DNA from: a virus
Lineage: Duplodnaviria; Heunggongvirae; Uroviricota; Caudoviricetes
Length of the DNA stretch: 9,906 nt
Reading direction: 5' to 3' (one strand)
IMG/VR virus record: IMGVR_UViG_2563366903_000019
How positions within the stretch are numbered: the first letter of the stretch is position 1; every line of letters begins with the position of its first letter. The position numbers and the translations under genes are program-made. Shown here one piece after another: positions 1-9,906 of this stretch. The notes under the pieces are model-generated. The model did not search any database, was not told the origin of the DNA, and saw only the letters and a list, made by a program, of their open reading frames with translations.

Positions 1-1239
1 ATGAGCAGCGCAATTCATAGACTTAGCGACACTCTTTTACGAAAATTAAGCGGATCACCAACCACAAAAAACGCCTTTTTTAATGACGGTGGCAATCTTA
101 GCGTAAGACATTCCACCAGCGGCCTGTTAACCTGGTATTTCACTTACAGGGCCGGAACTGGTAGGCAGGTATCACCGGAACGTCTGAGACTGGGCAATTA
201 TCCCGATCTGAGCCTGAAAGCAGCCCGGGAAAAAGCAGCACAGTGTCGCGCCTGGCTGGCTGAGGGGAAAAATCCGCGCTATGAGCTTAATCGTGCTGTA
301 CAGGATGCGTTAGCCCCCGTGACAGTTAAGGACGCGCTCACTTACTGGCTTGAATCGTATGCAAAGGAAAAGCGCACTGACTACGAATCACTGAAAAGCC
401 GGATCAATAAACACATAATCAGCCAGATTGGCGCTTTGCCGTTGGAAAAATGCGAGCTACGGCACTGGTTGGCATGTTTTGACCAGATGGCAAAGCGAAG
501 CCCAGTATCTGCCGGATTTTTGCTACAGGTATGCAAACAGGCGCTTAAGTACTGCCGAAAACGACGATACGCAATCAGCAACGTTCTTGATGATATGGTT
601 GTCGGTGATGTGGGAAAAAAAGCAGAAGTGAGCGAGCGCGTACTAACAAACAAGGAGCTTGGGGAATTACTCCGCGCCCTGGATGACAAAATATTCCCTC
701 CATACTACAGCGCCCTAATTCGCCTCCTGATTGTTTTTGGATGCCGTACCACTGAGCTAAGGCGCTCTGAGGTGCAGGAGTGGGATTTTAAAGAAATGCT
801 CTGGACAGTACCGAAGGAGCACAGCAAAACGAAGGTCGCCATATTCAGGCCAATACCGGAAAGCATTTTGCCGTTCGTCACGCAACTGGTGGAGCAGAAC
901 AGACACACGGGCTTATTGCTTGGTGAACTGAAAGGACAATCTTCGGTAGCAGAGTACGGAAGAACAGCGCACAGACGAATTAATCAAGCCCCTTGGACGT
1001 TACACGATATCCGGCACACATTTACAACCATGCTGAACGATTTAGGCGTGGATCCGCATATTGTCGAGCAGCTTACAGCCCACCAGATGCCAGGGATGCA
1101 GCGAGTCTATAACCACTCCCGTTATCTTGATGCAAAACGTGATGCTCTTAATCTATGGGTAGACCGTCTCGAGCTTCTCCAGAACAATGATGAAAAAATC
1201 GTTGTTATGACCCCGCGAATTTACACCCAAAATTCTTGA
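1..1239 (+). CDS. int: Tyrosine-type site-specific integrase, P4-like family
   Basis: 412-aa ORF. N-terminal arm-binding-like region (LSD...DGG..L...Y pattern), conserved Arg in GCRTTELRR, HxxR box (LHDIRHT) and C-terminal VYNHSRYLD with the presumed catalytic Tyr. ORF begins at window position 1, so the true start could lie upstream. Confidence 0.85.
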   Translation: MSSAIHRLSDTLLRKLSGSPTTKNAFFNDGGNLSVRHSTSGLLTWYFTYRAGTGRQVSPERLRLGNYPDLSLKAAREKAAQCRAWLAEGKNPRYELNRAVQDALAPVTVKDALTYWLESYAKEKRTDYESLKSRINKHIISQIGALPLEKCELRHWLACFDQMAKRSPVSAGFLLQVCKQALKYCRKRRYAISNVLDDMVVGDVGKKAEVSERVLTNKELGELLRALDDKIFPPYYSALIRLLIVFGCRTTELRRSEVQEWDFKEMLWTVPKEHSKTKVAIFRPIPESILPFVTQLVEQNRHTGLLLGELKGQSSVAEYGRTAHRRINQAPWTLHDIRHTFTTMLNDLGVDPHIVEQLTAHQMPGMQRVYNHSRYLDAKRDALNLWVDRLELLQNNDEKIVVMTPRIYTQNS

Positions 1240-1658
1240 CAAATTACGGCTGTTTTTTCTTTAAGAGATTATAGCCGTGAATAGATCTTAGAATATCGGG
1301 GAATATCTGCAAATATCTTCTCTTTATATGTGTCAACTATCGAAAAAAATTGAAATGTCTTCTTCTGAGTTCTTATTCTCTGTTACTTGATTGTTCCAAC
1401 ACCTGATGGTTTATCTATTTGTTTTTAATGAGGTAATTCAGGTGCTATGCCAAATGACGACATTTTTTGTTGCGTCGCTTAAAAACTCGTGACACGATTT
1501 TAAACACTAACGAGCTTCTACGAACCTTAGCGAACAAAGCCTTTAGCATGGTTGTGTTTTTAATTTAAGAGGTGAAAAAGAATCTAAGTAATATCCGATC
1601 TCATATATCTACAGCTAAGAGAAAAGTTTATATACGTAATTTTTATGTAGGTTTTTGT
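1240..1658 (+). promoter_or_regulatory. AT-rich int-alpA intergenic control region (presumed alpA promoter/leader)
   Basis: About 420 bp with no credible ORF and visibly lower GC than flanking genes; three AATATC direct repeats in the 1290s-1320s; strong SD-like AAGAGGTGA around 1566-1574 with no well-spaced ATG. Confidence 0.3.
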
Positions 1659-1868
1659 ATGCGTGAAATAAATGAAGATCGCGTAATCCGTGAGGATGAA
1701 TGTCGTAAGTTAACTGGAGTGTGCCGCACTACACGTTACGAACTGGAGAAAAAAGGGCGCTTTCCGTCACGTCTTAATCTGGGCGGTCGTTCTGTAGGGT
1801 GGCTGCTGTCCGAGGTTATGGAATGGGTTAAAAGCCGGGATCGCATTAATTCAGGTAAGGCAGTGTAA
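1659..1868 (+). CDS. alpA: AlpA-family phage transcriptional regulator (small HTH protein)
   Basis: 69-aa product MREINEDRVIREDECRKLTGVCRTTRYELEKKGRFPSRLNLGGRSVGWLLSEVMEWV matches the size and pattern of AlpA-type regulators. ATG at 1659 is in frame within the longer 1572 (GTG) ORF; start choice is uncertain. Confidence 0.7.
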   Translation: MREINEDRVIREDECRKLTGVCRTTRYELEKKGRFPSRLNLGGRSVGWLLSEVMEWVKSRDRINSGKAV

Positions 1869-1884
1869 AGGGGAGCATATGACA

Positions 1885-1915
1885 CATAAAACAAAGGCGA
1901 CCTGGGGCGGTCGCC
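1885..1915 (-). terminator. Putative rho-independent terminator for minus-strand transcript
   Basis: 7-bp GC-rich stem GGCGACC / GGTCGCC (1896-1902 / 1909-1915) with 6-nt loop; on the minus strand it is followed by TTTGTTTTAT. Lies about 90 nt downstream of the minus-strand gene stop. Confidence 0.4.
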
Positions 1916-2006
1916 AATGGGAAAACACTAAACATAAGCCCGAACATCATAGCGATTTGCTGGCTGGTGGGCAATGTGCTCAGTGTGCTGGCTTGCTGGT
2001 GGACTA

Positions 2007-2189
2007 TCAGCCTTTTGGTTCTATGCCTTCTTTGCGTAGCTTGTCACGACAGGCATTTTTAACCCATGAACTGAAATTACCAGGCCCAGCAACTTCGTTA
2101 ATTTGTTGCAACAATGTGTCTTCGAAGCGGATGTTTTTCTTTGTGCTGCCAGAGCGATCAAATTTTGGTTTCTCATTTTTTTCTTGCAT
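2007..2189 (-). CDS. Small ribbon-helix-helix-like DNA-binding protein (possibly YlcI/YnfO DUF3950-like)
   Basis: 60-aa ORF with a basic N-terminus, a beta-strand-like KKNIRFED, then two helices (TLLQQINEVAG, NFSSWVKNACRDKLRKE), which is typical RHH architecture. Codon usage looks coding. Own terminator downstream and palindromes upstream. It lies antisense inside the long + ORF 1879-2538, so it is ambiguous. Confidence 0.45.
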   Translation of the reverse strand: MQEKNEKPKFDRSGSTKKNIRFEDTLLQQINEVAGPGNFSSWVKNACRDKLRKEGIEPKG

Positions 2190-2234
2190 TGGTACGTACC
2201 ACCGTTATAAACTGAAACCCAATGGTACGTACCA
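2190..2234. promoter_or_regulatory. Twin palindromic operator-like sites TGGTACGTACCA
   Basis: Identical 12-bp perfect palindromes at 2190-2201 and 2223-2234 (centres 33 bp apart), immediately upstream of the minus-strand RHH gene start and about 100 bp upstream of the + strand ATG at 2335. Confidence 0.4.
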
Positions 2235-2334
2235 TATTGAAGATACGCAACCATTAAATACAGCGAAGCCCCGCAGTGGTGGAACACTCGCAGGGCTTCT
2301 AACCACCAACGATAGAAAGCGTATCGAGGTAGCT

Positions 2335-2538
2335 ATGAGAAATCATACCACACACCCGCAAGGGCGGGACTCGCACAACCTGAATAAATACATCTGGCGT
2401 TTTATCGCCCTGAGCACGGCACAACCGCGCGTGATTACCATTGAGGCCACCAGCGAACAGGAAGCACGCCTGCAATCCCCGGCTGGCTGCGTGATGGTAT
2501 TCGCCGCCCGTATTCGTCAGGGGGTGTTCCATGCCTGA
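2335..2538 (+). CDS. Small hypothetical protein (possibly host cell division inhibitor Icd-like)
   Basis: ATG at 2335 preceded by GAGGT (2326-2330). 67-aa product MRNHTTHPQGRDSHNLNKYIWRFIALS... with E. coli-like codon usage. Stop overlaps the start of the next gene (ATGCCTGA). It is the 3' part of the 219-aa ORF 1879-2538, sharing its stop. Confidence 0.45.
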   Translation: MRNHTTHPQGRDSHNLNKYIWRFIALSTAQPRVITIEATSEQEARLQSPAGCVMVFAARIRQGVFHA

Positions 2539-2851
2539 TATGTCAAATTACCAGTACCTGATTAATCCGCATTTTAACTGTGAGCATGATATTGCTAAAA
2601 AAGTTTATTCCGCTGCGGATGGGGCTACTGACAATATATCAATGGCTGTTGCCTCAATTGGTAACCTGATGTGGTATGCGTCAGAAAATGAGGAATATGA
2701 CGAAAAGGCCATGCGCATTGATATGGGTAATATCGGTTTGTTACTGGCAATGCTTGGGCAGTTTGATATTTCGTTACGGTGCACCATTGAAAATGCCAAA
2801 GATGCATTAAATGCTATAAAGAAAGCGAATACTGATTTAAATCGGGGATAA
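2531..2851 (+). CDS. Hypothetical protein (106 aa), low-GC accessory gene
   Basis: ORF with GGGGG 9 nt upstream; start overlaps upstream stop; GC visibly lower than neighbouring genes; no motif I can recognise. Confidence 0.6.
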   Translation: MPDMSNYQYLINPHFNCEHDIAKKVYSAADGATDNISMAVASIGNLMWYASENEEYDEKAMRIDMGNIGLLLAMLGQFDISLRCTIENAKDALNAIKKANTDLNRG

Positions 2852-2857
2852 ATAATC

Positions 2858-3157
2858 ATGAGAACATATTTATCTGGCTTGACTGCCAGCGGTTATGCAC
2901 ACCCCCAAATTATCCCCGGCGCTATTTATCTGGATAAGAACGGTAACAGAGTAACGGTAAAAGAACTGATGTTTGACCGAGTGTATTTTATCCGTGATGG
3001 CTATTCATTTCTTAGTTCGCTGAACGTGGAGATCTTTATTAGCAGATTCAGGCGGGAAATCCCGCTTTCCAGAAATAACCATGTGTCATGTATGGATGTT
3101 GATAAAAAACTACAGGAACTAAAAAACATGATTGCCGCGTGGAGAGAGCAGAAATGA
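2858..3157 (+). CDS. Hypothetical protein (99 aa), low-GC accessory gene
   Basis: Starts 6 nt after the upstream stop; its stop overlaps the primase ATG (ATGA at 3154-3157); low GC; no recognisable motif. Confidence 0.6.
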   Translation: MRTYLSGLTASGYAHPQIIPGAIYLDKNGNRVTVKELMFDRVYFIRDGYSFLSSLNVEIFISRFRREIPLSRNNHVSCMDVDKKLQELKNMIAAWREQK

Positions 3158-5277
3158 AAAAAGCGCCAAATTTAAAACACCAGCCACGTGACAAAATGAC
3201 GGAAGTCATCATTTTTGCGGGTAGTGATGCGTGGGCACATGCGAAGCAGTGGCAGGAACAGGACGGGCGACTGGCTGGCGACAGCGTGCCTCCTGTCTGG
3301 CTTGGAGAGCAACAACTTGCCGAACTGGATAAGCTGCAAATTGTGCCGGAAGGCCGAAAATCAGTACGCATATTCAGGGCCGGACATCTTGAGCCAGTAA
3401 TGATCAAGGCGATTGGTCAGAAGCTGGCGGCGGCAGGCGTACAGGATGCAAATTTTTACCCTGATGGAATGCACGGTCAGGAGGTGGAGAACTGGCGCGA
3501 ATATCTAGCCCGTGAGCGGCAGAATCTTTCTGATGGTCTGGTTATTGAGTTTCCGGTAAAGAAAAAAGATACCGGAAGCCATAGCGATGACGAATTAAAG
3601 CCACGCGTTGAAAGTCGCGCCGATGGTGTTTTCTGGGTAACGCCCAAAGTGGATAAGCAGTCAGGCGAAATTATCCGGCCTGAGACGTGGTTATGTTCTC
3701 CGCTTGAACTACTGGGAACGGGGACGATCGGTAAAGAGCATTACCGCGTGATGCGCTGGAAAAAAACCGCAAACCATGAAGTCATCACAATGGCGATCCC
3801 GTGTGGTGGTATCGGCGACCGTGACGGCTGGCGGTTACTTAAAGATCACGGGCTGAACGTGACAACCAACGGCAAATACAGGGCAATCCTGGCGGACTGG
3901 ATGCAGTTAAGCGGAAGCCATGAGGAATGGCAGTTAAGCACAACAACGGGCTGGCATTTTGGCGCGTACATCATGCCGGACGGTTCGATCATTGGTGAAT
4001 CTGAAAAACCGATCCTGTTTACCGGAAAAAGCGCCGCGATTAACGGTTATTCCGTGGCGGGCACGGCGGATGGCTGGCGCGACAGCGTGGCGCGTCTGGC
4101 TGGCGGTAATGCCTCAATGATGCTGGGTGTGGCAACGTCACTGGCAGCGCCTTTAATTGGCCTTGTGGGTGCTGACGGCTTCGGGGTGCATCTTTTCGAA
4201 CAGTCATCGGCAGGTAAGACCACCACGCAGAACATCGCATCAAGTTTATGGGGAGAGCCGGACGCGCAGCGGCTGACCTGGTACGGCACGGCGTTAGGTA
4301 TTGCCAATGAGGCCGAGGCCCATAATGACGGGCTTTTACCACTGGATGAGATAGGCCAGGCCGGAAATGCGCGGGAAGTGTCAACGTCTGCTTATACGCT
4401 GTTTAACGGTTCAGGGAAATTGCAGGGGGCGAAGGATGGCGGCAACAGGGAGATCAAACACTGGCGAACGGTGGCAATCAGCACCGGAGAAATGGACGTT
4501 GAGACATTCCTCAAAAGTGAGGGGATAAAAGTTAAGGCGGGGCAGCTTGTCCGACTGCTTAACGTTCCGATGGAAAAAGCCACGAAATTTCACGAATACA
4601 GCAACGGTAAGGAACATGCTGACGCGTTAAAGGATGCCTGGACAGCAAATCACGGGGCGGCGGGTCGTGAGTGGGTTAAATGGCTGGCAGGCCACCAGCA
4701 GGAGGCAAAGGATACGGTAAGGGAATGCCGCGAACGGTGGCGCAACCTGATACCGGAGAGCTACGGCGAGCAGGTCCACCGCGTGGGTGAACGTTTCGCC
4801 ATACTGGAGGCCGCGCTTGTGCTTTCCGGTCATGTAACTGGCTGGGTCGTGCAGGAATGCCGCGACGCGATACAGCATAACTTTAATGCCTGGGTGAAGG
4901 AGTTCGGCACGGGTAACAGGGAATTTAAACAGATGGTTGAACAGGCTGAGGCGTTTTTGTCGTCGTTTGGGTTTAGCCGCTACCTTCCGTACCCCAATAC
5001 AGATGAGCGTGATTTACCGATTAAAGAGCTTGCCGGATACAGAAAAGGGAGCATTCGCAACGAAGATGACGAGATGCGCTATTACACGTTCCCGCACGTG
5101 TTTGAGAGTGAGATAGCGAAGGGATTTAATCCGGCGCATTTTGCGCGTGCCCTGGATGCTGCCGGAATGCTGGAGAAGGGAAGCGATCGCCGATACAAAA
5201 AAAAGGCGCTGGGCAAGATTGGGGGTAAGCAGCATGTTTTTTACGTGCTGATGTTCCAGCCTGATGATGAAGATTAA
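3154..5277 (+). CDS. Primase/helicase-like replication initiator (P-loop NTPase; DUF927/P4-alpha-like Pri-Rep class)
   Basis: About 707-aa ORF from ATG 3154 (SD GGAGAGAG at 3141-3148); ORF track gives a GTG at 3139. Walker A-like EQSSAGKTT; position immediately upstream of the iteron array matches satellite replication proteins. Confidence 0.8.
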   Translation: MKKAPNLKHQPRDKMTEVIIFAGSDAWAHAKQWQEQDGRLAGDSVPPVWLGEQQLAELDKLQIVPEGRKSVRIFRAGHLEPVMIKAIGQKLAAAGVQDANFYPDGMHGQEVENWREYLARERQNLSDGLVIEFPVKKKDTGSHSDDELKPRVESRADGVFWVTPKVDKQSGEIIRPETWLCSPLELLGTGTIGKEHYRVMRWKKTANHEVITMAIPCGGIGDRDGWRLLKDHGLNVTTNGKYRAILADWMQLSGSHEEWQLSTTTGWHFGAYIMPDGSIIGESEKPILFTGKSAAINGYSVAGTADGWRDSVARLAGGNASMMLGVATSLAAPLIGLVGADGFGVHLFEQSSAGKTTTQNIASSLWGEPDAQRLTWYGTALGIANEAEAHNDGLLPLDEIGQAGNAREVSTSAYTLFNGSGKLQGAKDGGNREIKHWRTVAISTGEMDVETFLKSEGIKVKAGQLVRLLNVPMEKATKFHEYSNGKEHADALKDAWTANHGAAGREWVKWLAGHQQEAKDTVRECRERWRNLIPESYGEQVHRVGERFAILEAALVLSGHVTGWVVQECRDAIQHNFNAWVKEFGTGNREFKQMVEQAEAFLSSFGFSRYLPYPNTDERDLPIKELAGYRKGSIRNEDDEMRYYTFPHVFESEIAKGFNPAHFARALDAAGMLEKGSDRRYKKKALGKIGGKQHVFYVLMFQPDDED

Positions 5278-5299
5278 TCCCCTGTGTGAGGAAAAAAAT

Positions 5300-5615
5300 T
5301 GCGGGTTATGCGGGTTATCCTGTGTATAAGTGTATTAAGTGCATGAATATAAAGGAAACCAATAACCCGCACGTAACCCGCAAAAGGGCATTTATAACCC
5401 GCAAAAGCACGATTATAACCCGCAGGCGAATAACTGAAGTAACACCGGACAGTCATGCGTAACCCGCAGAAAAAACCCCGTTTGCGGGTTATTTTGAGCG
5501 TTTTGCGGGTTACGTGGTGAGCAAATAATAAACAGGGCGTTTTGCAAAATACTGATATAAAAGGATAAAAAATGGTTAGCACGCTAAGATAACCCAATAA
5601 CCCGCATAACCCGCA
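5300..5615. repeat. Iteron array / putative origin of replication
   Basis: About 11 copies of RTAACCCGCA in both orientations (5300-5309, 5310-5318, 5362-5371, 5373-5382, 5394-5403, 5415-5424, 5459-5468, 5483-5492, 5504-5513, 5597-5606, 5607-5615) plus an AT-rich stretch at 5520-5590, directly downstream of the replication gene. Confidence 0.75.
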
Positions 5616-5647
5616 CATGTTTCTATATATATAAATTGAGGTGGCAA

Positions 5648-5899
5648 ATGACCAGAACACGCAGAGACAGAACAGAGCCAAAATATAAAGCGTTAGACAT
5701 GACTGAGCACACCTTAAAGGTGGCAATCAGAACGATAGACCGCCACACGCGGGAAGGATACGCGAAGGAACATCCCGACCTGATAAGCGCATTCATGACC
5801 ACGGCGGCGGCAAACTTTGCCACGCTGACAGAACGGGAGATTGCCGAAGCGGAACAGGTAACAACCATCAACGTTAAAACCGGAGAGGTGGAATCATGA
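5648..5899 (+). CDS. Hypothetical protein (83 aa)
   Basis: ATG at 5648 with GAGGTGG just upstream; stop overlaps the ssb start (ATGA at 5896-5899), indicating translational coupling. Confidence 0.55.
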   Translation: MTRTRRDRTEPKYKALDMTEHTLKVAIRTIDRHTREGYAKEHPDLISAFMTTAAANFATLTEREIAEAEQVTTINVKTGEVES

Positions 5900-6306
5900 C
5901 AGCACAGATAGCGGCTTACGGTCGGCTGGTGGACGACCCGCAGGTAAAACAGACCAGCAAGGGCACACCGATGACGCTGGCGCGTATGGCGGTATCACTG
6001 CCATGCAGTCAGGCACAGGACGGACAGGCGACGTTATGGCTATCGGTCATCGCATTTGGTAAGCAGGCCGACTTCCTGGCTAAACATCAAAAAGGCGACG
6101 TTGCCAGCGTATCCGGCACGATGCAGGTCAGCCAGTGGACCGGACAGAACGGGGAGACGCGTCAGGGTTATCAGGTTATTGCAGACAGCGTAATCAGTGC
6201 CCGTGCGGCACGTCCTGGCGGGAACAGACGCAAAACCACAGGCGCACAGGGTAATCAGCCACCAGCGGGAGGCGATGACCCTTACGGTGATGATATTCCG
6301 TTCTGA
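5896..6306 (+). CDS. ssb: Single-stranded DNA-binding protein (SSB family, short linker)
   Basis: 136-aa product with OB-fold-like core (IAAYGRLVDDPQV..., LWLSVIAFGKQADFLAKHQKGDVASVSGTMQVSQWTGQNGETRQGY) and the hallmark acidic C-terminal tip DPYGDDIPF. SD GAGAGGTGG upstream. Confidence 0.85.
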   Translation: MTAQIAAYGRLVDDPQVKQTSKGTPMTLARMAVSLPCSQAQDGQATLWLSVIAFGKQADFLAKHQKGDVASVSGTMQVSQWTGQNGETRQGYQVIADSVISARAARPGGNRRKTTGAQGNQPPAGGDDPYGDDIPF

Positions 6307-6316
6307 GGGGGTGACG

Positions 6317-6589
6317 ATGGTACATGACCGCATAGCGGAAGAACTCGAAGCGAAAGGATTTTACCGGAGGGCGGCGGCGCGATGGGGTGAAGTCATGCAG
6401 CTGGTGGAGACAGACAAGGAACGGCATCAGGTTACGATGCGACGGCTGGAATGTTCCAGGAAGGCACAGAGGCCACCGGAGCCGCCGGATAACTTCGGAG
6501 ACCTGAGAAAGGCAGTCGATCGCACTTATGCTGAAATGGGTATAGATGGTGTAAGCGATGAAATATGGCGTAATTACCCAGGCAGCTAA
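6317..6589 (+). CDS. PerC-family transcriptional regulator-like protein
   Basis: 90-aa product MVHDRIAEELEAKGFYRRAAARWGEVM... matching the PerC/Pch-like N-terminal motif as I recall it. SD GGGGG 5 nt upstream of ATG 6317; the ORF track's 6197 extension overlaps ssb. Confidence 0.65.
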   Translation: MVHDRIAEELEAKGFYRRAAARWGEVMQLVETDKERHQVTMRRLECSRKAQRPPEPPDNFGDLRKAVDRTYAEMGIDGVSDEIWRNYPGS

Positions 6590-6594
6590 TCAAC

Positions 6595-6618
6595 AGCCGG
6601 AGTAATCCGGCTTTTTTG
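6595..6618 (+). terminator. Rho-independent terminator
   Basis: Stem AGCCGG / CCGGCT with loop AGTAAT, followed by TTTTTT. Confidence 0.6.
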
Positions 6619-6623
6619 TACCC

Positions 6624-6667
6624 AAAAAAAGCCCGATAAGTACAGGAGGCATCTTATCGGGCTTTTG
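6624..6667. terminator. Putative bidirectional terminator hairpin
   Basis: 10-bp stem GCCCGATAAG / CTTATCGGGC (6631-6640 / 6653-6662), with an A7 run before and a T run after. Confidence 0.5.
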
Positions 6668-6710
6668 CATATGAGGTTTTTTTTGGCGCACTGACACACA
6701 TGATCGGGAT

Positions 6711-6760
6711 CATCATTTCATAATTTGCAACACAACTCAACATCATTGCATAAAATGCAA
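6711..6760. repeat. Two 20-bp direct repeats upstream of and overlapping the capsid-operon promoter
   Basis: CATCATTTCATAATTTGCAA (6711-6730) and CATCATTGCATAAAATGCAA (6741-6760), 17/20 identical, 30-bp register. Confidence 0.5.
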
Positions 6761-6773
6761 TCATGATTATAAT
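6746..6773 (+). promoter_or_regulatory. Sigma70-like promoter of the capsid operon
   Basis: -35 TTGCAT (6746-6751), 16-bp spacer, perfect -10 TATAAT (6768-6773); predicted start near 6780, about 50 nt before ATG 6830. Confidence 0.5.
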
Positions 6774-6778
6774 CAGAT

Positions 6779-6794
6779 CTGGATGAACATCCAG
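6779..6794. promoter_or_regulatory. Operator-like palindrome at predicted transcription start
   Basis: CTGGATGAACATCCAG, a 16-bp near-perfect palindrome (half-sites match 7/8) immediately downstream of the -10 element. Confidence 0.4.
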
Positions 6795-6829
6795 TTATGA
6801 TTTTTTAAGTCAAAGAGGAATTTCTTACT

Positions 6830-7036
6830 ATGGCTGAAGAGAAAAAAGGCGGTGTTTCGGTGTACATAAGCCCCGACATCGTGAAGGCGCTCAAGGAACG
6901 CCACCAGCAGAACGTAAAAGCAGGCATTGCGGCAGGACTTGATCCGCTGGCGATGGTTGAGCCGTCAACAGGCTGGCAGGTACGCGCCTATTTACGCGCG
7001 GCGCTGGGTATGAATCAGGTTCACGGGGGTGAATAA
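6830..7036 (+). CDS. Hypothetical protein (68 aa), first gene of capsid operon
   Basis: ORF with AGAGG about 11 nt upstream; its stop overlaps the capsid gene start (TAATG); no recognisable motif and no cysteines. Confidence 0.55.
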   Translation: MAEEKKGGVSVYISPDIVKALKERHQQNVKAGIAAGLDPLAMVEPSTGWQVRAYLRAALGMNQVHGGE

Positions 7037-8091
7037 TGACAGTAAAAGCAATAGCACTTAACACTAACCAGCTTTTTGCGTACCTGAATCGCGAGGATAT
7101 TGCGGAATTTAAATTCAGTCCGCTGTTTACCGCGCTGTTTTTCCCGAACGTGGCGACATTCAACACACAGGACATCATGTTAGATAACCTGGATATTGAA
7201 GAAGTCACTATGTCGGCGTTTTGTTCGCCTATGGTGGGTAGCCAGGTTCAGCGCGATAAAGGGTACGAAACAAGCATTATTCGCCCTGGCTACATGAAGC
7301 CAAAACACGAAATCGATCCATTAAAAACAATAATGCGCATGGCTGGAGAAGATCCAGCACAGCTTAACGACCCTACCTACCGCCGTATGCGCCTGATTAC
7401 TGGCAACATGCGCCGCCAGATAAACGCCATTAAAGCGCGCGTGGAATGGCTGGCGGTGAATGCGATAACGACCGGAAAAAACATCATTGAGGGCGAAGGC
7501 ATAGAACGCTATGAAATCGACTGGAAGATCCCAAGTAAAAATATCGCCAGACAGGGACATGGCAAAAAGTGGTCAGAGGCAGATAAGGAAACACACGATC
7601 CAATCTATGACATCGAGCTTTATGCTGATCAGGCTGGTTGCCCCGCAAACGTCATGATTATGGGCGCTGAGGTATGGCGAACGTTACGCAGCTTTAAAAA
7701 ATTCCGTGAGCTGTACGATCTTTCCCGTGGTTCAGAGTCCGCCGCAGAGCTGGCCTGTAAAAACCTGGGCGAAGTGGTGAGCTTTAAAGGCTATCTGGGC
7801 GATATTGCCCTTATCGTCTATTCCGGCAAATACGCCGACAGCGACGGCACAGAAAAATATTTCCTTGAGCCTGATTTGCTTGTCCTGGGCAACACCAACA
7901 ATAAAGGGCTGGTGGCCTATGGTGCGATTATGGATCAGGACGCAGTAAGAACGGGGGCAACGCAAAACATGTACTACCCGAAAAACTGGATTGAGGACGG
8001 AGATCCGGCGATTGAGTACGTGCAGACGCACAGCGCACCGCAGCCGGTTCCGGCAGATATTCGCAAATTTGTTACTGTCAAAATTGCTTAA
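7036..8091 (+). CDS. Major capsid protein, lambda gpE family (HK97 fold)
   Basis: 351-aa product aligns by eye with lambda gpE as recalled: FKFSPLFTALFF vs FKFDPLFLRLFF, PGYMKPKHEIDP vs PGYVKPKHEVNP, EDPAQLNDPTYRRMRLITGNMR vs EDPQNLADPAYRRRRIIMQNMR, YPKNWIEDGDPAIEYVQTHSAP vs YPKNWVTTGDPAREFTMIQSAP. Confidence 0.9.
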   Translation: MTVKAIALNTNQLFAYLNREDIAEFKFSPLFTALFFPNVATFNTQDIMLDNLDIEEVTMSAFCSPMVGSQVQRDKGYETSIIRPGYMKPKHEIDPLKTIMRMAGEDPAQLNDPTYRRMRLITGNMRRQINAIKARVEWLAVNAITTGKNIIEGEGIERYEIDWKIPSKNIARQGHGKKWSEADKETHDPIYDIELYADQAGCPANVMIMGAEVWRTLRSFKKFRELYDLSRGSESAAELACKNLGEVVSFKGYLGDIALIVYSGKYADSDGTEKYFLEPDLLVLGNTNNKGLVAYGAIMDQDAVRTGATQNMYYPKNWIEDGDPAIEYVQTHSAPQPVPADIRKFVTVKIA

Positions 8092-8102
8092 CGGGGGATT
8101 CT

Positions 8103-8438
8103 ATGGACACTCCATACATTGAGTTATTTGCAGGCAGTCAGCAGGTCGCCACGACGCTGGTACATTTTGCCGCTGATGCTGGCGTTATCCAGGAATTTAC
8201 CCCGCTGATGCTGGCGGACAATGGCGAGTTTAAGCCGTGGGATGGTCAGGAATCTGGCAAGGCTGTTTATCTGACTTCGTACCCCGTGGACACGTCAAAG
8301 CAGAAATCAGCACAGTGTTACAAGACGGGGATATTTAATATCGCCGCCGTAAACTGGCCTGAGAGCGCCGACACTGACGCGAAAAAATGCGCCGCCTTTG
8401 CGGGTTCTGGCGTATCCGTTCAGCCGCTGGCGCGATAA
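8103..8438 (+). CDS. Head decoration protein, lambda gpD-like
   Basis: 111-aa product with TPLMLADNGEFKPWDG and CYKTGIFNIAAVNWPESADTDAKKCAAFAGSGVSV, matching lambda gpD (TPLMLDTSSRKLVAWDG ... [36 protein letters not shown]). SD ACGGGGGA upstream. Confidence 0.85.
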   Translation: MDTPYIELFAGSQQVATTLVHFAADAGVIQEFTPLMLADNGEFKPWDGQESGKAVYLTSYPVDTSKQKSAQCYKTGIFNIAAVNWPESADTDAKKCAAFAGSGVSVQPLAR

Positions 8439-8450
8439 GCAGGGGAAACG

Positions 8451-8864
8451 ATGGCAACGAATGAAAGCATCATGGCGCTACCGCTGGCGAGTAAATTTAA
8501 AGCAGAAGCGCGGGCAATGGCTGACAGAGGTTTATCAACCTACGAGGCCGTATATCAACTCAACAAACTGGAAGAACAGGACAAGCCGCGCGCTGATGCG
8601 ATTATGGCGCTTCATGAACATAACGACTATCAGCCGCTGTTACGTGCAATGGCAAACGTGCCATGTATTAGCGTCGATAATGCTCGTGAAATCCTGAACA
8701 TGACCATAGAGCAGGAGCGCCCAAAGGTTGCACCAGAGCTTACCGCAGCCTTTGAAAACTTTATGGACATGCACAGCCCGCAAGCCGTATCAGCTGGCAT
8801 GGCGTACGATGGCAGAAACCAGGGCGATGACGGCGACATCGATCGCATGCTGAAAACCATCTGA
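8451..8864 (+). CDS. Hypothetical protein (137 aa), last gene of capsid operon
   Basis: ORF with AGGGGA 4 nt upstream, followed directly by a terminator; acidic C-terminus; occupies the position lambda gives to FI but shows no similarity to it that I can see. Confidence 0.6.
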   Translation: MATNESIMALPLASKFKAEARAMADRGLSTYEAVYQLNKLEEQDKPRADAIMALHEHNDYQPLLRAMANVPCISVDNAREILNMTIEQERPKVAPELTAAFENFMDMHSPQAVSAGMAYDGRNQGDDGDIDRMLKTI

Positions 8865-8868
8865 GACA

Positions 8869-8894
8869 AGGCCGGAGAAATCCGGCTTTTTTTT
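8869..8894 (+). terminator. Rho-independent terminator
   Basis: Stem GCCGGA / TCCGGC with loop GAAA, followed by T8; nearly identical in sequence to the terminator at 6595-6618. Confidence 0.65.
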
Positions 8895-8960
8895 ACGGGT
8901 CCTTTCCGGCATATGGACCCGTTACGGGGCGGCGACCTCGCGGTTTTTCGCTATTTATGA
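8895..8960. other. cos site: lambda-like cosQ-cosN core (cosN GGGCGGCGACCT at 8927-8938)
   Basis: ACGGGTCCTTTCCGG ... GTTACG GGGCGGCGACCT CGCGGTTTTTCGCTATTTATGA; the last 33 nt match the left end of lambda (GGGCGGCGACCTCGCGGGTTTTCGCTATTTATGA) at 32/33 from memory, and the upstream part resembles the lambda right end. Confidence 0.75.
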
Positions 8961-9031
8961 GCCTTTTCAGGGGGGGGTGGTGGTTTTGTTGTTTGCTCTA
9001 TCTTTATGAATGAAAAGGGAAAGATGCAAAC

Positions 9032-9069
9032 AATACACCAACCTGAAGCAGTAATTAAGTTGGTGTATT
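9032..9069. promoter_or_regulatory. 11-bp perfect inverted repeat in cosB-equivalent region (candidate TerS binding site or 5' hairpin)
   Basis: AATACACCAAC (9032-9042) and GTTGGTGTATT (9059-9069) separated by 16 nt, abutting the ATG at 9071. Confidence 0.4.
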
Positions 9070-9070
9070 A

Positions 9071-9613
9071 ATGAAATCGCACCTGATGAACAAAAAAAAC
9101 ATGGCGAAAAGCTGCCGTGTAAGTGCGACAGCGTTCGACAAGTGGGGAGTGACTCCCGTTGAACGTAAAGGCCGTGAGGCGTTTTACGATGTTGCCAGCG
9201 TGATAGACAATAGGGTTAACAATGCAATTAGCCAGCTTACAAACGACAAAGGCGATATTGATGATGATGAACTCTTACGAGTCAGGATCAGATTACTGAC
9301 AGCACAGGCGGAGGCGCAGGAACTTAAAAACGAGCGCGATCGCGGTGACGTGATCGATACTGAGTTTTGCCTGTACGCGCTTTCAAAGCTGGCGAGTCAG
9401 ATTTCATCAATCATGGACAGCCTCCCGCTTACTATGCAAAGGAGCTTCCCACAGATTACCCCCGCCATGCTGGATAGGCTTAAAAGGGAAGTGGTTAAAG
9501 CCTGTAATGCCAGTGCCAGAGTTGCCGACAACCTCCCACAGATACTGGCTGATTACTTGAAAGAAACAACCGGAAACGTACCGGAAAAGTTGCAGCCGAA
9601 TAAAGATAAGTAA
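9071..9613 (+). CDS. Terminase small subunit, lambda Nu1-like
   Basis: C-terminal two-thirds align with lambda Nu1 as recalled: LLTAQAEAQELKNERDRGDVIDTEFCLYALSKLASQISSIMDSLPLTMQRSFP vs LTRAQADAQELKNARDSAEVVETAFCTFVLSRIAGEIASILDGLPLSVQRRFP. The N-terminal HTH region is divergent. Alternative start at ATG 9086 (MNKKN..., matching Nu1 MEVNKK...). Confidence 0.85.
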   Translation: MKSHLMNKKNMAKSCRVSATAFDKWGVTPVERKGREAFYDVASVIDNRVNNAISQLTNDKGDIDDDELLRVRIRLLTAQAEAQELKNERDRGDVIDTEFCLYALSKLASQISSIMDSLPLTMQRSFPQITPAMLDRLKREVVKACNASARVADNLPQILADYLKETTGNVPEKLQPNKDK

Positions 9614-9624
9614 CGTAGTACGCT

Positions 9625-9906
9625 ATGACTGAATCCGAAATACTGCGATTAATCCGCCGCGTCTCTGGAATCAGCCAGCAGGCTGACGAACAGACCACGC
9701 AGCCGGACAGCGTGACAGCCGAAAACTATGCGCGTGTTGTTGCTGAGGTGATGCGCCGTGATGGTATAGAACTTAATGGCGTGGATATGCGCAACATACG
9801 AACCAGAGTTCTTGAGTTGCTGGCCTACCGTCGCCGCGTGGAGATGTATCGGGAGAAGGAGAAAATAACGTACCACTGGAAGAAGCCGGAGCGGTTGCGG
9901 CGGTAA
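9625..9906 (+). CDS. Hypothetical protein (93 aa) downstream of terS
   Basis: Complete ORF ending at the window edge, 11 nt after the terS stop; weak SD; Arg-rich C-terminus; not similar to the lambda gpA N-terminus as I recall it. Confidence 0.5.
   Translation: MTESEILRLIRRVSGISQQADEQTTQPDSVTAENYARVVAEVMRRDGIELNGVDMRNIRTRVLELLAYRRRVEMYREKEKITYHWKKPERLRR

Follow-up and report, generated by a model that had tools for sequence, protein, structure and literature searches.

Here we analyse a 9,906-bp stretch of DNA held as IMG/VR virus record IMGVR_UViG_2563366903_000019 (Caudoviricetes), referred to at its full length as the window. It is very probably the gene-bearing body of a classical Gram-negative phage-inducible chromosomal island (PICI) of the EcCICFT073 family, in a variant in which a small terminase (TerS) of its own replaces the packaging protein Rpp. 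Islands of this kind in Escherichia coli are small mobile elements whose spread relies on lambda-like phages, and the window fits them as a typical example. EcCICFT073, the prototype Gram-negative PICI, resides in E. coli CFT073 between roxA and phoQ (positions 22931–33655 of record L005), and its induction, packaging and transfer by phages lambda and phi80 have been established experimentally (PMC6092414, PMC6739421). The gene order of the two elements is the same nearly gene for gene, from int to a last open reading frame (ORF) of 93 amino acids (aa). Between window positions 5720 and 8968 (from an 87-aa ORF to the cos core) their DNA is 92.8% identical, and each has lambda-like cosQ and cosN sites and a private cosB. 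The window is a mosaic member of a family already named and catalogued, and its layout in itself adds nothing new.

Gene content, integration site and relatives

The first base of the window is that of the int ATG and its last base closes the stop codon of the final gene; the window is therefore without att sites and resembles an element cropped from first gene to last. Fifteen of the 16 genes lie on the plus strand, the sole leftward gene being a 60-aa ylcI/ynfO homologue, as in EcCICFT073. All 16 genes are intact, as are the iterons and cos. The map runs through int, AlpA, small coupled ORFs, a DUF927 replication protein (Pri-Rep), an iteron origin (ori), a single-stranded DNA-binding protein (SSB), PerC, capsid, decoration, cos and TerS. 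The features on which the assignment is built are as follows.

1–1239, plus strand: P4-like tyrosine integrase (PF13356 arm-binding and PF00589 catalytic domains)
1659–1868, plus strand: AlpA-family regulator/excisionase, 69 aa (PF05930, E 2e-16)
3154–5277, plus strand: Pri-Rep replication protein, 707 aa (DUF927 and HTH_56; phrog_1139 'DNA primase', E 1.7e-190)
5300–5615, both orientations: replication origin with 11 exact copies of the iteron TAACCCGCA, directly 3′ of pri-rep
7036–8091, plus strand: homologue of the lambda gpE-family major capsid protein (PF03864, E 1e-49)
8103–8438, plus strand: homologue of the lambda gpD-family head decoration protein (PF02924)
8451–8864, plus strand: 137-aa protein homologous to the Nu3/scaffold domain at the C-terminus of lambdoid gpC (c1501 of EcCICFT073, 92% identical)
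8893–8965, plus strand: cos core, with a cosQ/R4-like box GGGTCCT (8897–8903), cosN (8927–8938) and an I2-like segment
8969–9070, plus strand: satellite-specific cosB
9071–9613, plus strand: Nu1-family TerS, 180 aa (PF07471, phrog_57), in the slot of rppA
9625–9906, plus strand: conserved 93-aa protein (phrog_1561), 88.7% identical to EcCICFT073 in DNA and 86% in protein

Gram-negative PICIs are described as having a unidirectional int–alpA–pri order, an origin 3′ of pri, a lambda-like cos and a private att site, with no lysis or tail genes, and capsid homologues are frequent among them (PMC6092414; PMC10111431). All the sequence-level traits by which such islands are recognized (Fillol-Salom 2018; SatelliteFinder) were found. 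The integrase gene is at the left end and transcription is rightward; an AlpA-family regulator lies 3′ of int; the primase-replicase gene has an iteron-type origin directly 3′; and a capsid-type gene occurs together with a packaging-specificity gene and an exact lambda cosN. There is no large terminase (TerL), portal, tail or lysis gene, and the size is in the range of ~10–15 kb (~11.3 kb for the att-bounded relative in E. coli N10). The att site, seen in relatives with 96–99% identical int genes, is one unused by prophages. In the terms of SatelliteFinder, whose core set comprises an integrase, an AlpA-type regulator, a primase-replicase, a capsid gene and a small terminase and which reported 'Type A' PICIs in E. 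coli (PMC10085698), the window has all five core components of Type A and no 'forbidden' phage component. SatelliteFinder's is a cataloguing study, in which the working of a cos-type PICI TerS is not treated.

The initial annotation had described this DNA as a helper-dependent satellite of lambdoid cos phages. This reading is supported by the collinearity with EcCICFT073, by the closest genomes, in which no prophage surrounds the element, and by a relative embedded in a lambda-like prophage (see below); profile searches placed each of the listed components at or near its implied position. The pairing of a P4-type integrase and AlpA with a lambda-type head and packaging module, put forward as the organizing observation, is indeed present, but it is the defining layout of a named PICI family and is not new. 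From homology with EcCICFT073 we infer that induction, excision, replication, packaging and transfer of the present element would likewise depend on a helper. The absence of lysis, tail, portal and large-terminase functions was also borne out: when lambda- and 21-type Nu1, A (TerL), W, B (portal), C, D, E, FI, FII and tail proteins were searched against all six frames by tblastn, only Nu1, D and E gave matches, no protease gene was found in any frame, and no window ORF matched a lysis, tail, portal or TerL family in Pfam and PHROGs profile searches.

The window differs from EcCICFT073 in several respects. EcCICFT073 has a 144-aa RppA where the window has the 180-aa Nu1-family TerS, and the cosB sequences also differ. 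The C-terminal part of Pri-Rep is of D5_N/DUF5906/Pox_D5 type there and of DUF927 and HTH_56 type in the window. The integration site is ycfD(roxA)–phoQ there and cspD–clpS for integrases of the window type. EcCICFT073 also has four extra small ORFs before DUF4222; an ORF of 85–87 aa lies between ori and ssb in both elements. Finally, two cos sites are present there and one in the window, in which a single cosN-like sequence was found with up to two mismatches allowed. The second EcCICFT073 site, cos2, is inverted and lies between rppA and the last gene (window 8896–8960 against L005 33340–33276). Profiles of identity against EcCICFT073 and against the N10 element form a patchwork of blocks at 100% and at 56–80%.

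Among 5,426 complete E. coli genomes, the best match to the whole window is in E. coli N10 (96% identity over 98% coverage), where the element is located between cspD/yljB and clpS with no phage genes around it. The int genes of N10 and of E. coli TOE17, both at the cspD/yljB–clpS att site, are 96–99% identical to that of the window, and the Int protein is 77% identical to that of EcCICFT073. Alignment of an empty site (L003) with N10 yielded an imperfect 17-bp direct repeat, ATGATAGTTAT(T/C)TATCA, as the att core; the repeat marks both ends of the ~11.3-kb N10 element and is found at the yljB 3′ end, ~85 bp upstream of clpS. Fillol-Salom et al. had already listed the ATGATAGTTAT core at cspD–clpS in their 2018 Table S1 for EcCIIHE3034 and EcCI18098, which have the same site and core as N10 and TOE17 and measure 10.5–10.8 kb against ~11.3 kb. 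The initial annotation had pointed to the 3′ terminus of a tRNA or tmRNA gene as the likely att site; relatives with this integrase type sit instead at the yljB 3′ end, no tRNA or tmRNA was found at their insertion site, and none is encoded within the window. It had also named a complete prophage in the flanks as the finding that would overturn the satellite reading, and the closest genomes show chromosomal genes at that place.

A different 17-mer, AATGGTGTAGTTAATTT, found close to each end of the N10 element, was considered as the att sequence and rejected, as the joined flanks matched over only 72% in the empty-site comparison and the true core is further out. Its copies are at positions 7963 and 19007 of L001 (N10), alongside GTTCG-rich repeats, and together these are probably arm-type sites of the integrase. 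Between the last gene and attR of N10, ~1.2 kb (L001 17876–19104) has no annotated gene.

TOE17 (NZ_CP069093.1) is one of the relatives in which mosaicism is seen. Its DNA is 99.4% identical to window positions 1–6616, from int through perC, at the same cspD–clpS site, but in this element (L093 6501–19617) the early half is joined to a complete late module of a capsid-forming PICI (cf-PICI), with an HK97 capsid, protease, portal, connectors, HNH, a P27-type TerS and TerL. The junction lies just past the perC terminator, at window position ~6616, and the TOE17 perC has an internal stop. In TOE17 the exchange of modules between classical PICIs and cf-PICIs can be seen directly.

The near-identity with the early module of a cf-PICI, together with the capsid, decoration and scaffold-domain homologues of the window and an Int, AlpA and Icd-like gene that recall P4, could be taken to place the element among cf-PICIs or P4-like satellites instead of classical PICIs. 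We consider this extremely improbable. Members of the cf-PICI (EcCIEDL933) family have their own TerL, portal, protease, HNH and head–tail connectors, and none of these hallmarks was detected in the window by Pfam and PHROGs searches or by searching all six frames with lambda- and 21-type versions. Similarly, no window ORF gave a family match to the P4-like hallmarks Psu, Sid, Delta and epsilon (Ash). The genes in common with P4 are not family-defining, and the cos of the window is of lambda/21 type with a 12-nt end, not that of P2/P4.

The terS–cosB cassette

The exact lambda/21 cohesive-end 12-mer, GGGCGGCGACCT, is present at 8927–8938. When the window was compared with 50,697 phage records, the only DNA in common was positions 8889–8972, which match the cos of phage 21 and other lambdoid phages. 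This conserved block corresponds to the R4 box, cosN and the integration host factor (IHF) site I2 of the annotated phage 21 record; the R4 box is, we take it, the element now called cosQ. The core is kept in phage 21, PhiR5_1 (the best phage match to the cos DNA) and cos1 of EcCICFT073. Rightward of ~8968, the sequence is unrelated to the R boxes of phage 21 or to the cosB of EcCICFT073. Because homology with EcCICFT073 ends at this point, between cosN and cosB, cosB and terS form one cassette; homology resumes at 9625, past terS.

TerS itself is composed of parts with different nearest relatives. Over the whole protein the closest phage homologue is N15 gp1 (46%), and all 153 phage matches are below 60%. 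Residues 1–60, the DNA-binding domain, are 53% identical to N15, with a short wing in common, against 26–33% for the other phage TerS proteins compared. Residues 95–168 are closest to PhiR5_1 (56%, others 34–40%), the central and C-terminal region as a whole being 52–56% identical to PhiR5_1 TerS. The protein is full length and keeps the C-terminal region that is missing from Rpp. Alignment with phage TerS extends through residue ~166–168 and is followed by 13 extra C-terminal residues. This tail of ~13 aa (NVPEKLQPNKDK and similar; window 9575–9613) occurs in all satellite TerS variants, and is not present in the TerS of lambda, 21, N15 or PhiR5_1. No similarity was detectable between TerS and RppA or between TerS and PDB chains. 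Blastp likewise found no RppA homologue among the window ORFs, and none matched a PDB chain sequence in a library in which the published RppC structure should be represented.

Five variants of the cassette were compared. Their TerS proteins are 82–97% identical, with residues 1–50 almost invariant and variation in the C-terminal part. Two blocks of cosB, GGTGGTGGTTTTGTTGTT at 8979–8996 and CAATACACCAACCTGAA at 9030–9046, are invariant across the five, and the first is located 53–70 bp from the left end of cosN, the position of R3 in lambda. As judged from sequence, invariant cosB blocks paired with a near-invariant DNA-binding domain suggest genuine cos recognition.

At the R3-equivalent position, TerS-type cassettes have (GGT)n followed by TTTTGTTG, N15 (L007 ~50–62) has GGTTGTTGTTT, and cos1 of EcCICFT073 (L005 ~32610–32625) has the reverse complement CACCACCACCAC. 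TerS-type and Rpp-type cassettes have the same motif here in opposite orientation, for two different winged-helix specificity proteins, a resemblance that may be due to chance.

The cassette is widespread. By megablast, cosB–terS is present in 769 of the 5,426 complete E. coli genomes (14%), with 760 copies nearly full length, and the rppA cassette, at the same sensitivity, in 269 (~5%), with 53 full-length copies, a count from which diverged RppB and RppC alleles are probably under-represented. In IMG/VR we found 126 relatives and surveyed 80 of their loci up to 10 kb on each side. A TerL, a full portal gene and an RppA were each found at none of the 80. Forty-five loci extend at least 8.5 kb upstream of terS, and the surroundings there are those of a satellite: Int at 41, the Icd-like gene, DUF4222 and SSB at 44 each, capsid and decoration at 43 each and the 93-aa ORF at 41. 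More variable are the 137-aa ORF (18 of 45), PerC (15) and the 68-aa ORF (21). Given these neighbours and the complete absence of TerL and RppA, the TerS lineage is satellite-specific, and terS and rpp alternate in one slot. At most loci Int is only 21–42% identical to that of the window. Scans of one genome per species, with a sensitivity limited to a few peptide patterns, returned no TerS relative.

One relative is located within a helper-type prophage. In E. coli Z0117EC0116, a PICI (L009 631–10512) with the same terS–cosB cassette (~90% identical) is inserted in the portal gene of a lambda-like prophage, whose own TerS (in L012) is identical to lambda Nu1 at 179 of 181 positions. Only the late cassette is in common with the window; the int is different, the slot of the 137-aa ORF holds a 127-aa protein annotated as a helix-turn-helix regulator, and neither perC nor the 68-aa ORF is present. 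This arrangement is the published configuration of helper-embedded PICIs (PMC10111431). Such islands are integrated by a dedicated integrase clade within one of the late genes of their helper prophage, whereas the relatives that have the integrase of the window are chromosomal.

How TerS would act can be framed by two precedents. EcCICFT073 has no TerS; its 144-aa RppA heterodimerises with the TerS of the helper and retargets it to the private cosB (PMC6739421). Rpp proteins, with ~144–153 aa and a winged helix-turn-helix, are without the C-terminal 30–40 residues to which TerL binding maps (PMC9026076). In pac-type Staphylococcus aureus pathogenicity islands (SaPIs) such as SaPIbov1, a satellite TerS pairs with the helper TerL and redirects packaging (PMC10530653). 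SaPIs differ in their headful (pac) packaging, in a TerS of another family, in Ppi, which blocks the helper TerS, and in being governed by the repressor Stl instead of an AlpA activator; the likeness between the TerS of the window and that of SaPIs is one of analogy, not homology.

In one account of the cassette, TerS serves mainly to interfere, as a decoy that forms mixed oligomers with helper TerS or titrates TerL, with helper TerS still needed for packaging. It would fit the placement of terS exactly in the rppA slot and the mutual exclusion of the two, the TerS-like winged-helix domain of Rpp and its heterodimerisation with helper TerS (PMC6739421), and the identity of 40–55% between phage TerS and the island TerS over its central oligomerisation region. 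Set against this are the full Nu1-type C-terminal half, kept here unlike in Rpp, where TerL binding maps (PMC9026076), and the near-invariance of the private cosB and the DNA-binding domain already described. We regard a mainly interfering TerS as possible rather than probable. Interference and packaging are not mutually exclusive, and the former may be a live alternative or an added function.

Capsid module and proposed life cycle

Upstream of cos lie three genes for head proteins. The capsid protein is 94% identical to c1499 of EcCICFT073, while no phage capsid protein exceeds 46% identity to it; it thus represents an old lineage rather than a recent capture; the decoration protein is 98% identical to its EcCICFT073 counterpart. 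The 2018 PICI tables give no annotation for the third gene, the 137-aa ORF; four lines of evidence show its homology to the C-terminal scaffold (Nu3) domain of lambdoid gpC. It matched positions 494–567 of 583 of PHROG 53 (E 7e-10); blastp aligned it with residues 416–497 of gpC of the 21-type prophage of CFT073 (E 1e-9); phmmer connected it with lambdoid gpC (E 2e-13); and hhalign of its family alignment against 21-type gpC gave a probability of 98.3% (E 1.3e-14, residues 368–488 of 501), with a weaker 75% against lambda gpC. A 195-aa database protein links the ORF and gpC. Exhaustive HMMER searches recovered a narrow family of only 8 representatives. The AlphaFold model is all-helical (pLDDT 73.5), and Foldseek returned nothing significant for it from BFVD or PDB. 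Some NCBI records name homologues 'phage head-tail connector protein', a name that we rejected because no NCBIfam or Pfam model backs it. An Rpp homologue in either the 137-aa or the 93-aa ORF was likewise rejected, there being no matching PDB sequence. A terminator-like hairpin (8868–8889) follows the 137-aa ORF, just before cos.

Ratios of non-synonymous to synonymous substitution rates (dN/dS) against EcCICFT073 are 0.13 for the capsid, 0.06 for the decoration and 0.24 for the scaffold-domain gene, and the three genes are therefore kept by purifying selection. The gene of the 93-aa protein (model pLDDT 62.7), which follows terS here and lies 3′ of rppA and cos2 in EcCICFT073, has a dN/dS of 0.23.

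With capsid, decoration, scaffold-domain and Nu1 homologues and a cos that are all of lambda type, the window could be viewed as a decayed lambdoid prophage remnant with a few head and packaging genes rather than as a dedicated satellite; islands of this kind, for example O-island 51/CP-933C, have historically been annotated as defective prophages (PMC3378721). This is very improbable. Int, AlpA and Pri-Rep are of P4/PICI and not of lambdoid type, and the window has neither the head–tail–lysis set of a lambdoid prophage nor a TerL beside TerS. Both the major capsid protein and TerS are at most 46% identical to proteins of the 50,697 phage records, which points to an old separate lineage and not to recent debris. 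The same compact layout recurs with intact ORFs in hundreds of genomes, and dN/dS values are well below 1. The TerS lineage never adjoins TerL, relatives are flanked by chromosomal genes with clean att ends at a documented PICI site, and helper-dependent excision, replication and transfer have been shown for the collinear EcCICFT073.

Taking the window as a classical PICI, we propose the following life cycle. The island would reside upstream of clpS, inserted at the yljB 3′ end, as seen in relatives sharing its integrase. A lambdoid helper would switch on alpA, a step known from experiments on EcCICFT073, and AlpA and Int would then excise the island. The DUF927 Pri-Rep would bind the TAACCCGCA iterons and, with the SSB of the island, replicate the circle to concatemers, as suggested by the anatomy of the region and by pri–ori experiments on EcCICFT073. 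Island TerS is predicted to read the private cosB through its N15-like winged-helix domain and to recruit helper TerL through its Nu1-type C-terminal half. Helper TerL may be able to use the island cos because cosQ and cosN are of helper type, and would nick it and terminate packaging there. Since this Nu1-type half is kept, TerS would bring in TerL directly, whereas Rpp needs helper TerS as an adaptor. Concatemeric island DNA would be packaged in helper-made heads, which would then be joined to helper tails. The island may also express its scaffold (Nu3 domain), coat (E) and decoration (D) homologues. Four copies of an 11.3-kb genome amount to ~45 kb, which lies within the packaging range of the lambda head (roughly 78–105% of 48.5 kb).

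Generalized, this scheme would make TerS-type cos PICIs a second hijacking route, at least as common as Rpp, in which TerS recruits TerL directly and helper TerS is dispensable; in addition, a matched Nu3/E/D shell kit could assemble jointly on helper portals, giving procapsids that are satellite-specific or hybrid. We put this forward tentatively, as a conjecture more apt to fail than to hold in its full form.

Several points weigh against the scheme and the assignment on which it is built. No complete E. coli genome among the 5,426, and no IMG/VR contig, equals the window end to end, and integration at the yljB 3′ end is read from relatives with its integrase. In cosB, GGTGGTGGTTTTGTTGTT and CAATACACCAACCTGAA are candidate TerS binding sites by their conservation, and an 11-bp inverted repeat has a right arm that is not conserved. 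As to whether the TerS C-terminus tracks that of the helper, all TerS variants stay closest to the PhiR5_1 type, including that of the prophage-embedded relative, whose helper TerS is lambda Nu1 and whose TerS C-terminus is 41% identical to lambda against 35% for the window. Regarding the capsid module, EcCICFT073 still interfered with lambda after deletion of c1499 or c1500 (PMC6092414), and its capsid gene is reported to be dispensable for transfer (PMC10111431, which cites PMC6092414); the module may therefore have an accessory role. The heads in which EcCICFT073 is packaged are phage-sized (PMC6092414). The 'primase' of the initial annotation survives as a PHROG family label ('DNA primase'); the recognizable domain is a DUF927 helicase, no primase catalytic domain was recognizable in Pri-Rep, and primase activity is thus unsupported. 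By domain content, DUF927 and HTH_56 mark a replicative helicase of the Cch/SaPI-Rep type. Our searches of the literature found no experiments on this element or on any cos-type PICI TerS.

A further reading is that of a PICI by descent whose present copy is fixed and no longer mobilisable. The att sites and flanks of the island lie outside the sequence, the window is a unique mosaic with no full-length counterpart elsewhere, and relatives do decay, as the internal stop in the TOE17 perC illustrates. We nevertheless consider a fixed copy unlikely, since all 16 genes, the iterons and cos are intact and the late genes are under purifying selection.

PICIs carry virulence regulators and defence genes between enterobacteria and interfere with temperate phages. 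Rpp is the only cos-PICI packaging device studied mechanistically, yet the terS–cosB cassette is the more frequent in E. coli genomes, and we found no characterization of the TerS-type cassette or of the scaffold–coat–decoration trio in the searchable literature. The window is modestly useful as a pointer to both, the cassette and the trio under selection.

Early genes and other features

The remaining features of the window are listed below.

1240–1658, no strand: int–alpA intergenic region, AT-rich (~34% GC)
2007–2189, minus strand: YlcI/YnfO family (DUF3950) small protein, 60 aa
2341–2538, plus strand: Icd-like protein (phrog_6196), sharing 98% identity with its EcCICFT073 counterpart
2531–2851, plus strand: hypothetical protein, 106 aa (phrog_15327), overlapping the end of the Icd-like gene
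2858–3157, plus strand: DUF4222 protein of the RgdR family, 99 aa
5636–5899, plus strand: hypothetical protein, 87 aa (phrog_1231), its end overlapping the ssb start
5896–6306, plus strand: SSB, 98.5% identical to that of EcCICFT073
6317–6589, plus strand: PerC-family regulator
6830–7036, plus strand: hypothetical protein, 68 aa (phrog_3255), its end overlapping the capsid gene start; in about half of related loci

In the replication module, the N-terminal ~163 aa of Pri-Rep are common to EcCICFT073 Pri (78% identical), and no Pfam domain matched the first 170 residues. The TAACCCGCA nonamer occurs 11 times against a mean of 0.08 in shuffled sequence.

The int–alpA intergenic region presumably holds the alpA promoter and the control by which a helper is sensed. 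The correct start of AlpA is at 1659, and the protein is 57% identical to that of EcCICFT073. A promoter scan of the window gave fewer matches than shuffled controls, and Rfam gave no match in the window at gathering thresholds, only sub-threshold noise in the regulatory region at 1200–2600. No window ORF matched a defence model in PADLOC.

The ends of the Icd-like, 106-aa and DUF4222 ORFs overlap or abut. The DUF4222 protein is 33% identical to C1493 and has no RGD motif (residues 20–22). The RgdR family regulates motility and the type III secretion of the enterocyte effacement locus (LEE) in enterohaemorrhagic E. coli (EHEC); with PerC, the island thus encodes members of two virulence-linked regulator families.

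An apparent zero synonymous divergence of the 68-aa ORF, considered as a sign of constraint at the nucleotide level, was rejected, as the identity profile is a recombination patchwork and the ORF is missing from many relatives. A 219-aa plus-strand ORF (1879–2538) overlaps the leftward ylcI/ynfO gene; homology backs only its last 65 codons, which are the Icd-like protein, and the part upstream is probably spurious. The TOE17 annotation has a longer, 408-nt version of the Icd-like gene, making its true start uncertain. A terminator-like hairpin (6595–6612) follows perC.

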